From Escherichia coli O127:H6 str. E2348/69 (GTDB lineage Bacteria > Pseudomonadota > Gammaproteobacteria > Enterobacterales > Enterobacteriaceae): DNA of 64,000 nucleotides. The stretch is from NCBI RefSeq assembly GCF_000026545.1, contig NC_011601.1. One strand, written 5' to 3'. The notes under the pieces are model-generated. The model ran no database searches. It saw nothing but the letters and a program-made list of their open reading frames with translations, and was not told the origin of the DNA. Below are positions 13,005 to 64,000 of the stretch, piece by piece. The position numbers were made by a program, and so were the translations under genes. The first letter of the stretch is position 1. Every line of letters begins with the position of its first letter.

Positions 13005-13409
<405 letters not shown>

Positions 13410-13427
13410 TCAGGAGCGCAAGTTGCT

Positions 13428-13718
13428 TCAGGCCACGTGTGAGGCATCTTCCTCTTCGGATTCAGCACCGACGACCTGTGGGGACGGTAATTTGCCGGTT
13501 TTCAGAATGGTGCTCAGCACATCTTTTTGTTCTGCCAGCCATAGCGAAAGGGCTTCACGTTGCTCGTCTTCCATTTGCACTGGAGAATTTGTCAGCCAGG
13601 TGTCAAGCAGATCGGCCGTATCAAGCATCTTGTCATAAGCATCGGCTTCCTTTTTGCTGGTAAACGACATTTTCTCTTCGCCCTCACGAATGACTACGTA
13701 TTTAACTTCAACCGCCAT
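13428..13718 (-). CDS. yebG: DNA-damage-inducible protein YebG (SOS regulon)
   Basis: 96-aa ORF MAVEVKYVVIREGEEKMSF...; LexA box immediately upstream. Confidence 0.9.
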   Translation of the reverse strand: MAVEVKYVVIREGEEKMSFTSKKEADAYDKMLDTADLLDTWLTNSPVQMEDEQREALSLWLAEQKDVLSTILKTGKLPSPQVVGAESEEEDASHVA

Positions 13719-13735
13719 TTGCAGCCTCTCACAAT

Positions 13736-13755
13736 AACTGTGATTTTATACAGTA
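13736..13755. promoter_or_regulatory. LexA operator (SOS box) of yebG
   Basis: aaCTGTgattttatACAGta: CTGT-N8-ACAG palindrome 18 bp upstream of the yebG start. Confidence 0.8.
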
Positions 13756-13798
13756 TATTTCTTTTCAGTTGGGAAATCAACATCAGCAATAAAGACAC

Positions 13799-13814
13799 AC
13801 GCAAACGTTTTCGT
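13799..13814. promoter_or_regulatory. PurR operator upstream of purT
   Basis: ACGCAAACGTTTTCGT matches the PurR box consensus; lies about 40 bp upstream of the purT ATG. Confidence 0.8.
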
Positions 13815-13851
13815 TTATACTGCGCGCGGAATTAATCAGGGGATATTCGTT

Positions 13852-28335: not shown

Positions 28336-28947
28336 TCATAACGCGGCGCGTAGGGCTTCGCGAATTAATGTTTCACTGCTGGCGTCAGGGCGAGCGATTT
28401 TGCTCACCATGCGGCTTGCTTCTTGTGGTTTATAGCCCAGCGCCACCAGCGCGGCAACCGCTTCCTGTTCAGCATCGTCGGTCGCCGGGCTGGCAGGTGA
28501 CGTGAGTACCAGGTCGGCAGCTGGCGTAAAGAGATCGCCATGCAAACCTTTAAATCGGTCTTTCATTTCAACAATCAAGCGTTCGGCGGTTTTTTTGCCA
28601 ATACCCGGCAGTTTCACCAGCGCCCCCACTTCTTCACGCTCAACGGCATTAACGAACTGCTGCGCTGACATTCCAGAGAGGATCGCCAGCGCCAACTTCG
28701 GGCCGACGCCGTTGGTTTTGATCAACTCTTTGAACAACGTGCGCTCTTGTTTATTGTTAAAACCGTACAGCAGTTGCGCGTCTTCACGCACCACAAAGTG
28801 GGTGAAAACGATCGCTTCCTGACCCGCTTCAGGGAGTTCATAAAAACAGGTCATCGGCATATGCACTTCATAGCCTACGCCGCCCACTTCAATTAACACC
28901 AGCGGGGGTTGTTTTTCAATGATGATGCCTCTGAGTCTGCCTATCAC
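28336..28947 (-). CDS. ruvA: Holliday junction DNA-binding protein RuvA
   Basis: 203-aa [18 protein letters not shown]... Confidence 0.95.
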
Positions 28948-28997: not shown

Positions 28998-29017
28998 GCT
29001 GGATAGATATCCAGCGA
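28998..29017. promoter_or_regulatory. LexA operator (SOS box) of ruvAB
   Basis: gCTGGatagatatCCAGcg, a CTGG-N8-CCAG palindrome about 55 bp upstream of ruvA; the minus-strand reading is CGCTGGATATCTATCCAGCA. Confidence 0.8.
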
Positions 29018-51484: not shown

Positions 51485-51711
51485 TCAGGATACCACTGGC
51501 GCAATTTGTAACTGCGCCGACTCATGTCGTGCTACTTCATGTTCTTCAAGGGTAAATACCGCCACACGCGACGAAAGATGGTCGGCCTGATTCAGTCGTT
51601 GCAAATCGTCGCGAAATGCCCAAAAGACATGCCGTTACTGCCAATCTGCAAGATCCCGCAGAGAATCAAAGTTAAAAACAGCGTGGTCGAAATTCGAATA
51701 CGATTAAACAT
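51485..51711 (-). pseudogene. tap: tap remnant: MCP 5' end (about 30 codons) joined to MCP 3' end (about 33 codons); central ~1.4 kb absent
   Basis: ATG at 51711 opens MFNRIRISTTLFLTLILCGILQIGSNGMSF, paralleling the Tar N-terminus in this window, and stops after 39 codons at 51592; a second frame runs ...AFRDDLQRLNQADHLSSRVAVFTLEEHEVARHESAQLQIAPVVS to a stop at 51485, 18 bp before cheR. Confidence 0.7.
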
Positions 51712-56978: not shown

Positions 56979-56982
<4 letters not shown>

Positions 56983-57866
56983 GCTTCCTCGGTTGTCGTC
57001 TGTTGTTGCGGATTTTTCACCGCACGCACATGCTCTTCCAGCTCAATAAACGACGGACGTTCGCTGGAATAGAGCGTTTTGCGACCAAACTCAACGGCGA
57101 TAGGCGGTGCGTAACCGTTCAGATTTGAAAGCAGAGTGACTTTGACGCACTGCATCATTTTGCTGGTTTCGGCGCTTTTCTGACGTAAAACACTCGCTAA
57201 TGGGGAAATAAATCCGTAAGCCAATAAAATACCGAGGAAAGTCCCCACCATCGCATGAGCGATAAGCGCCCCCAGCTCGGCGGCAGGACGATCGGCTGAA
57301 CCTAACGCGTGAACGACCCCCATTACAGCCGCAACAATACCAAACGCCGGAAGTGAGTCCCCGACCAGCGCCAGACTGTTCGCCGGGACTTCTGCCTCGC
57401 TTTCGTGCGTCTCAATCTCTTCATCCATCAGAGCTTCGATTTCGAAGGTGTTCATGTGACCACTGATAATCAGGCGCAGATAATCGACGATAAATTCAAG
57501 CATGACGCTATCCGCAAGGATGCGTGGGTAGCTGGCGAAGATCTCGCTCTCACGGGGATTTTCAATATCGCGTTCCAGCGAAAACATCCCCATCTGCCGC
57601 GATTTCGCCATCAACCGATAAAGCAGAGCCAGCAGATCCATATACATTGCTTTGGTGTATTTGGAGCGACGAAACAGCAACGGCAGCGCCTTCAGCGTGC
57701 CTTTAATCGCTTTGCCATTATTGCCGACGATAAACGACCCAATCCCTGCACCGGCAATAATCACCAGTTCAGCGGGTTGATAGAGTGCTCCAAGGCTTCC
57801 ACCGGTCATCAAATAACCGCCGAAAACTGTACCGAGAACAACCAGGTAACCTAATAAGATAAGCAC
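56979..57866 (-). CDS. motA: Flagellar motor stator protein MotA
   Basis: 295-aa ORF overlapping the motB start by 4 bp. Confidence 0.97.
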
Positions 57867-57937
57867 GACATCATCCTTCCACTGTTGACCATGACAGGAT
57901 GTTCAGTCATCAGGCGTTAACACGCGATAGGGGCAAA

Positions 57938-60138: not shown

Positions 60139-62889
<2,751 letters not shown>

Positions 62890-62908
62890 CTGTCTCTTGA
62901 TCAGATCT
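62890..62908. repeat. Terminal inverted repeat of an IS50-family element (matches the IS50 inside-end 19-mer)
   Basis: CTGTCTCTTGATCAGATCT begins exactly where the araH frame is interrupted; the transposase stop codon (TGA on the minus strand) lies inside it. Confidence 0.8.
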
Positions 62909-64000
62909 CCTGATCAAGAGACTTCATCACCAGGTAACCCTCAACCATATCCTGAAGTCTGAACCAGCCATCCCACATGACTACCCAACCGGGGCGACCG
63001 GTGCGTTTGCTGTCATGCCATCGCCCCAGTTTCGCCAGTTTCAGACAGGCCCATTTCAGTGTCGGCATCTGTGACGGAAGCGGTTTTCCTTCCAGCTTAA
63101 CCCACAGCAGTTTCCACTCTGTCGGCGTCAGTATTTTCTCACAGCTGTCATTTTGTGTTTCTTCACTGATACCGCCCTGCCGCAGGCCCAGCACCCGCAC
63201 CGCGATAAACGCCTTGATAACCACCATGCGCTCGAGGTTATCCCGGGTCTGCATTCGCAGCGATTCCACACATGTACCACCACTTTTCCACGCCTTGTGG
63301 TATTCCTCTATCAGCCAGCGTCGCTCGTAATGGCTGACGATACGTCGCGCATCGGCGGCACTCGCCACTTTTTCTGACGTCAGCAGATGCCAGCAGGCGC
63401 CGTCCTCTGCCTGCTCCCGGCAACAGACATACGTGAGCGGGAGCGCCTGGCCGCTGTTGTCGGGATTTTTTATGCTGACTTCGCTGTAACTGATGAACAT
63501 CCGGGCCTGGCGGGCTGCCCGCCCGCCTTTTTGCATCACATTCAGCGTGTGGCTTCCCGCGGTTGCCAGGACTTCCGGCAGTTCGAAGAGCTTGCCGGGT
63601 GCTTCTTCCAGCCGGCGATTCTGTGCTGCACGCACCACGAAGCGCTGCCCGTGGCTGACTTTATAATGCAGGTAATGCCAGATATCCGCTTCCCGGTCAC
63701 AGACAGTGATTACCCGTTTCTGTATCTCCCCCAGCCGTTCGGCCATGCGCTCCGAAGCCTGCTGCCAGCGGTAACTTTCTTTTTCTTCATAGGGACGTTC
63801 TTTTCGCTGGTGCTTAACACCGTAGGTGTCCGTGGCACGACTCCAGCGCTGCTGTTCGATAAGACCGACTGGCAGGGCGCTGTCGGGGGCGTACATCAGG
63901 ACAGAGTGAGCCAGCAGCCCGCGCGTCTTCGGGTTAGTGGTGGTATTCCCCAGGTCATCAGATGCCGTACTGTGACTGAAGTTAATGGTGGTGGTGTCTT
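62901..64000 (-). CDS. IS4-family DDE transposase (Tn5/IS50 Tnp homologue), C-terminal ~365 codons; N-terminus lies beyond the window
   Basis: Frame is open from the window edge (DTTTINFSHS...TRGLLAHSVLMYAPD...) to the stop at 62901; VITVCDREADIW and RWLIEEYHKAWKSG align with the D188 and Y-R-E-K catalytic motifs of Tn5 Tnp, and DSKRTGRPGW with its C-terminal region. Confidence 0.85.
   Translation of the reverse strand, partial: DTTTINFSHSTASDDLGNTTTNPKTRGLLAHSVLMYAPDSALPVGLIEQQRWSRATDTYGVKHQRKERPYEEKESYRWQQASERMAERLGEIQKRVITVCDREADIWHYLHYKVSHGQRFVVRAAQNRRLEEAPGKLFELPEVLATAGSHTLNVMQKGGRAARQARMFISYSEVSIKNPDNSGQALPLTYVCCREQAEDGACWHLLTSEKVASAADARRIVSHYERRWLIEEYHKAWKSGGTCVESLRMQTRDNLERMVVIKAFIAVRVLGLRQGGISEETQNDSCEKILTPTEWKLLWVKLEGKPLPSQMPTLKWACLKLAKLGRWHDSKRTGRPGWVVMWDGWFRLQDMVEGYLVMKSLDQEI

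Follow-up and report, generated by a model that had tools for sequence, protein, structure and literature searches.

The 133-bp spacer between the divergent genes yebG and purT raises the question of whether two operators that lie so close together, one for LexA and one for PurR, act on each other's promoters or serve only the gene next to them. The spacer was analysed in the EPEC strain Escherichia coli O127:H6 str. E2348/69, within a stretch of 64,000 nucleotides of contig NC_011601.1 (hereafter, the window), for which the initial annotation had proposed that occupancy of one operator could influence the divergent promoter. Altogether, our results make it highly probable that the spacer carries two independent simple-repression promoters placed back to back, with LexA acting on the -10/+1 region of yebG and PurR with its corepressor acting on the -35/-10 spacer of purT. 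It should be noticed that the operators, promoters and regulators have been mapped in K-12 on identical sequence and are already known. The modest addition of the present comparison is that, across Enterobacterales, the spacer consists of two separable modules that can be split by insertions without operator loss.

In the open reading frame (ORF) listing of the E2348/69 window, yebG on the minus strand and purT on the plus strand diverge across positions 13719..13851, and family models support both identities, since YebG scored 204.5 bits (NCBIfam equivalog NF007475, cut-off 161) and PurT 652 bits (NCBIfam NF006766, cut-off 339). Bases 13400..14000 are present in 5425 of the 5426 complete E. 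coli genomes. The K-12 MG1655 spacer has the same length of 133 bp and differs at three positions only (13732, 13767 and 13772), both boxes and all four promoter hexamers being identical. Since these differences all fall outside the boxes and hexamers, experiments performed in K-12 carry over to E2348/69. The spacer is AT-rich (GC 0.34-0.39); an Rfam scan of 13300..14100 (E<=1) returned no RNA family and therefore no known riboswitch or sRNA in the spacer, and the terminator scan of the spacer region found none. The features of the region are listed in Table 1.

Table 1. Features of the yebG–purT control region, in window coordinates; conservation is the mean majority-base fraction over 58 aligned short spacers.
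Feature	Position	Strand	Conservation	Basis and remarks
yebG CDS, DNA damage-inducible protein YebG, 96 aa	13428..13718	-		ORF listing and RefSeq annotation
yebG leader and putative RBS GAGAGG/GAGG, 6 nt from ATG	13719..13735	-		Sequence reading
LexA (SOS) box aaCTGTgattttatACAGta	13736..13755			Read from sequence; TACTGTATAAAATCACAGTT on the yebG strand
LexA core CTGTGATTTTATACAG	13738..13753		1.00	Exact CTGT-N8-ACAG
yebG -10 hexamer TATACT	13752..13757	-	0.97	Promoter scan and PMC3946193
yebG spacer			0.48
yebG -35 hexamer TTGATT	13775..13780	-	0.70	Promoter scan and PMC3946193
Inter-promoter gap between back-to-back -35 hexamers, 11 bp	13781..13791		0.51	Variable sequence
purT -35 hexamer AAGACA	13792..13797	+	0.85	Promoter scan and PMC3946193
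PurR operator ACGCAAACGTTTTCGT	13799..13814		0.97	15/16 to consensus; within purT -35/-10 spacer
purT -10 hexamer TATACT	13816..13821	+	0.98	Promoter scan and PMC3946193
purT discriminator (GC-rich, GCGCGCGG), leader and RBS AGGGGA	13822..13851	+		Start predicted near 13828, from the -10
purT CDS, formate-dependent GAR transformylase, 392 aa	13852..15030	+		ORF listing and RefSeq annotation

On the yebG side, a LexA operator was taken to be a 16-bp CTGT-N8-ACAG core, AT-rich at its centre and embedded in a 20-mer similar to TACTGTATATATATACAGTA. The yebG box has this core palindrome, and its five mismatches to the idealised 20-mer all lie outside the core. Note that searching the window with the full 20-mer consensus at up to three mismatches gave no match, which is uninformative since the yebG box itself has five. 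The box shares 4 bases with the yebG -10 hexamer and also covers the predicted start near 13745, and thus overlaps the predicted promoter that it would regulate. The same box is printed for K-12 yebG as TATACTGTATAAAATCACAGTTATT, and UV induces the yebG-yebF transcript (PMC3009722). Treatment with AZT raised yebG 4.4-fold, with a 9.7-fold dependence on lexA and a heterology index of 6.3 (PMC11228462). In addition, Sort-Seq of the yebG promoter resolved LexA and RNA polymerase sites and showed the promoter to be inducible by mitomycin C (Belliveau et al. 2018, PMC6003448). The box of Salmonella yebG, for which nalidixic acid induction reached 41-fold, lies 17 bp from the ATG (PMC8072944), the same distance as the 17 nt found in the window. 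Within the yebG leader, the alignment also displayed a moderately conserved GCAGCC(T/C)C block. A CRP half-site (TGTGA within the E. coli LexA box) was considered and rejected, its other half being mismatched and the TGTGA not being conserved in other genera.

On the purT side, a PurR operator was taken to be a 16-bp palindrome near ACGCAAACGTTTGCGT with a central CG step, and the box agrees with it at 15 of 16 positions, the central CG included. With AAGACA on one side and TATACT on the other, it takes up the 18-bp spacer of purT, and so overlaps the core promoter of a purine gene. A PurR ChIP-chip peak has been assigned to purT, with a motif, ACGAAAACGTTTGCGT, that is the reverse complement of the box in the window, and purT was found to be directly repressed by PurR (Cho et al. 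2011, PMC3159470). In the Sort-Seq work, the purT promoter displayed a -35 and a -10; a repressor site appeared between these two elements in the presence of adenine only, PurR was enriched on this site by DNA affinity chromatography with hypoxanthine, and the repressor feature disappeared in a ΔpurR strain, the authors describing purT as a ‘simple repression architecture’ (PMC6003448). Taken together, the K-12 experiments on identical boxes uphold the regulon assignments of the initial annotation, namely yebG in the SOS regulon and purT in the PurR regulon. As a separate observation, the purT discriminator (13822..13829) is fairly conserved across genera, with a mean of 0.76. GC-rich discriminators accompany ppGpp/DksA-sensitive promoters.

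Could both boxes nevertheless be chance matches to a consensus, with no function at all? The motif counts give this reading some ground for LexA, since the window has two copies of CTGT-N8-ACAG where 0.53 are expected, and 6 of 100 shuffles reach two copies; by itself, the pattern is weak evidence for a LexA site, and conservation was therefore used as the deciding evidence for the boxes. The PurR consensus is different, since at up to one mismatch it has a single match in 64 kb against an expectation of 0.00 (100 shuffles). A YebG scan with one genome per species gave 80 loci, from Escherichia to Yersinia, in which the best LexA and PurR boxes were scored; these species are related, so the locus counts are not independent events. 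Both boxes were found at the orthologous position in 79 of the 80 loci of other species, which is decisive evidence that the sites are real. All of the 79 loci with purT in the fetched flank carry a LexA box upstream of yebG, at a distance of 15-38 bp, its core being exact in 76 and having one mismatch in 3, and all carry a PurR box (<=3 mismatches) upstream of purT, at a distance of 35-87 bp. Among the 58 aligned species, 12 of the 16 PurR columns are invariant. Indeed, the boxes are near-invariant in Enterobacteriaceae, Erwiniaceae and Yersiniaceae, and the flanks diverge. With binding and regulation published on the identical K-12 sequence as well, the chance reading is already refuted, and we give it practically no weight.

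The same motif counts draw attention to other sites in the window. The other exact CTGT-N8-ACAG, CTGTTGACCATGACAG at 57882..57897, lies in the flhC–motA intergenic region, 16-31 nt upstream of motA (56979..57866, minus strand), and is probably a chance match because its centre is GC-rich, unlike those of SOS boxes. A looser palindrome of the CTG-N10-CAG type, CTGGATAGATATCCAG, is found at 28999..29014 in the yobI–ruvA interval, a region from which yebB diverges. It is placed upstream of ruvA (28336..28947, minus strand), at a distance of 52-67 nt. Since it matches the published ruvA SOS box, TTCGCTGGATATCTATCCAGCATTT (PMC3009722), the window holds a second LexA-controlled divergent region. Over the whole window, 31 copies of CTG-N10-CAG were counted where 14 are expected (sd 3.8; 31 was reached by no shuffle), and this excess is probably an effect of codon or oligonucleotide composition rather than a set of binding sites, because most copies are GC-centred and lie within genes.

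Having established the sites, we consider their geometry. A consensus scan of 13350..14000 found exactly two promoter-like sites against 0.5 expected, namely TTGATT-17-TATACT on the minus strand for yebG and AAGACA-18-TATACT on the plus strand for purT, and identical hexamer pairs are printed for the two genes in an RpoD-holoenzyme SELEX paper (PMC3946193). Sequence reading and the ORFs confirm the initial annotation in placing the LexA and PurR boxes where Table 1 gives them within the divergent spacer, and its distances need small corrections. The LexA box does adjoin the yebG start, at 17 nt (13719..13735) instead of 18 bp, the PurR box keeps its position with 37 nt to purT (13815..13851) instead of about 40 bp, and the gap between operators, given as about 45 bp, counts 43 nt edge to edge, or 61 bp from centre to centre. 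The predicted starts of the two genes are ~83 bp apart. Counted from the predicted purT start, the LexA box is at about -73..-92; counted from that of yebG, the PurR box is at about -54..-69. The former ends 36 bp short of the purT -35 and the latter begins 18 bp past the yebG -35, and neither box overlaps or abuts the opposite core promoter.

Such positions are one ground for direct cross-talk, in which LexA occupancy would modulate the purT promoter or PurR occupancy the yebG promoter. On the predicted starts, the centre of the PurR box would fall at about -61.5 for yebG, and that of the LexA box at about -82.5 for purT. Proteins bound at such upstream positions can touch the polymerase alpha-CTD, and PurR bends DNA. 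In its mildest form, the ~61 bp between the centres (~six helical turns) would place the boxes within alpha-CTD reach, and a bound repressor or the PurR bend would mildly tune the neighbouring promoter; if true, such tuning would make basal yebGF expression respond to purine status, or purT to SOS status. We consider direct cross-talk in general very improbable, and regard its mild alpha-CTD form as having only a slight chance of being correct. In the Sort-Seq work, a larger region was mutagenised and regulation was apparent only within the 60 bp adjoining each gene, the authors writing of ‘directional regulatory features’ for this spacer; moreover, purT was assayed in a growth condition in which LexA is bound, yet the text of the report gives no LexA-box feature for that gene (PMC6003448). 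Expression points the same way, each gene tracking its own regulon in transcriptomes and proteomes. A stress-transcriptome meta-analysis lists purT among down-regulated hubs with other pur genes and yebG among the rising DNA-repair genes, and under AZT the purine genes tend down and yebG goes up (PMC11228462). In recA-deletion proteomes with ciprofloxacin, the decrease of YebG reached log2 -6 and PurT goes unmentioned among the reported changes, which is a mere absence of mention. A search of the literature mentioning yebG found no report of cross-regulation. The proposal of the initial annotation that occupancy of one operator influences the divergent promoter is thus unsupported and partly contradicted, the boxes lying outside the opposite core promoters. 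A weak cross-effect, if it exists, would be another case of neighbour interference at divergent promoters and would add no new principle.

The evolution of the spacing bears on the same question. purT is the adjacent divergent gene in 59 loci, and in 53 of these the centre-to-centre spacing is 59-63 bp, a range kept in most Enterobacteriaceae and Erwiniaceae. Such near-constancy speaks for cross-talk at first sight; however, the fixed geometry within each tightly packed promoter is enough to give a near-constant operator spacing of ~61 bp without functional coupling, the 11-bp inter-promoter gap being the one part that can vary. Indeed, the main insertion columns of the control region fall between 13782 and 13783, and the rest are found only in the purT leader or at the alignment ends. 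The exceptions have spacings of 69 bp in Escherichia whittamii (an 8-bp duplication), 71, 71 and 73 bp in Superficieibacter and a relative, 93 bp in Enterobacter sp. ENT03 and 188 bp in Klebsiella spallanzanii. A helical-phase constraint was considered for the 59-63 bp range and rejected as evidence, because promoter geometry is fixed, the exceptions (69, 71, 73, 93 and 188 bp) follow no common phase and the loci come from related species.

The K. spallanzanii case deserves a description of its own. Its insertion of ~127-128 bp (L047:2303-2430), bounded by 27-nt imperfect terminal inverted repeats, sits precisely between the -35 hexamers and leaves both operators intact. This ~128-bp insertion resembles an ERIC element, or else a miniature inverted-repeat element.

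A larger separation occurs in 20 loci of the Yersiniaceae type (Yersinia, Serratia and relatives; L053, L055, L056, L058–L061, L063–L066, L070, L071, L073, L074 and L076–L080), where a gene for a 460-aa ATP-dependent RNA helicase, oriented as yebG, lies between yebG and purT. In Yersinia pestis (L077:1025-2407), this gene was identified as DbpA with 783 bits against a cut-off of 524 (NCBIfam equivalog). The dbpA gene of E. coli is located elsewhere. In all 20 loci, each operator has stayed close to its own gene, the LexA box at 16-38 bp from the ATG of yebG and the PurR box at 56-87 bp from that of purT, and no second LexA or PurR box was found in the 1.7-2.1 kb between the operators. The spacing therefore tolerates +8, +10-12, +32 and +127 bp as well as a whole inserted gene, with both boxes kept, and the operators have not been held together at a fixed spacing in evolution. 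Each promoter half can separate from the other with its box staying with its own gene, and this splitting of the modules without loss of operators argues against functional coupling, and with it against cross-talk.

Coupling could also be indirect, as an effect added to the two repressors through polymerase competition, divergent supercoiling (twin-domain), or H-NS and RpoS holoenzyme acting on the AT-rich spacer. The predicted starts and the -35 hexamers, the latter only 11 bp apart, are close enough to invite this reading, and the AT-rich spacer bears an ‘HNS’ mark in the RpoD SELEX table (PMC3946193). In RpoS-holoenzyme genomic SELEX, the top genome-wide peak of K-12, 390-fold, falls at the purT 5'-proximal region and a further 63-fold peak falls in the yebG–purT spacer, although this assay is in vitro, uses fragments of 200-300 bp and is silent on any interaction between promoters. 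We observe that both -10 hexamers of this locus, with its strong RpoS-holoenzyme SELEX signal, read TATACT. Against indirect coupling, DNA damage raises yebG as the pur genes tend down, which is the opposite of what positive supercoiling coupling would give, none of the expression data cited points to coupling, and the inter-promoter gap accepts large natural insertions. Overall, we find indirect coupling unlikely. Still, the upstream alpha-CTD parts of the yebG and purT polymerase footprints must overlap, and some interference or supercoiling coupling could pass through these overlapping contacts; H-NS and RpoS holoenzyme are further inputs outside the two-repressor picture.

The preferred reading, two independent simple-repression promoters back to back, suggests the following mechanism. 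Both promoters would be of the sigma-70 type, and each would be silenced by its own repressor, presumably by steric occlusion. A LexA dimer on its box would mask the yebG -10 and predicted start (about -10 to +10), blocking the open complex until RecA-stimulated cleavage of LexA frees the box, after which transcription of yebG would run on into yebF. When purines are plentiful, PurR with hypoxanthine or guanine would occupy its operator (about -29 to -14 of purT) and block the polymerase there.

Two further observations concern this strain outside the locus. At ~62505..64000, an ISEc13 (IS4-like) transposase gene adjoins an araH pseudogene truncated at the N-terminus, and the araFGH arabinose transporter operon is therefore disrupted in E2348/69. 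Between tar and cheR, at ~51560..51711, the annotation gives a frameshifted ‘Tar ligand binding domain-containing protein’ fragment. In K-12 this position is taken by the chemoreceptor gene tap, of which E2348/69 thus appears to keep no more than a remnant.

Compared with known systems, each half of the spacer resembles its own regulon. Like the canonical SOS-box promoters (sulA, umuDC), yebG has a CTGT-N8-ACAG box with an AT-rich centre that overlaps the -10; its difference is a single box of moderate heterology index (6.3), moderate because of the TCACAG half-site. In the same way, purT shares with the simple-repression promoters of the pur regulon (purF, purC, purMN) the 16-bp palindrome with a central CG and the overlap with the core promoter, PurR motifs being described in this regulon ‘at the regions of -10 and -35’ (PMC3159470). 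The purT operator stands out among the other pur promoters by its placement exactly in the -35/-10 spacer, and experimental support for membership of purT in the PurR regulon dates only from 2011 and 2018. Two divergent pairs give the nearest terms of comparison for the spacer as a whole, namely uvrA–ssb, which has one common LexA box, and ilvY–ilvC, which is coupled by supercoiling. The yebG–purT pair is likewise compact and divergent, its short spacer holding a repressor site as well, but it has no common operator and relies on two different repressors, each at its own promoter.
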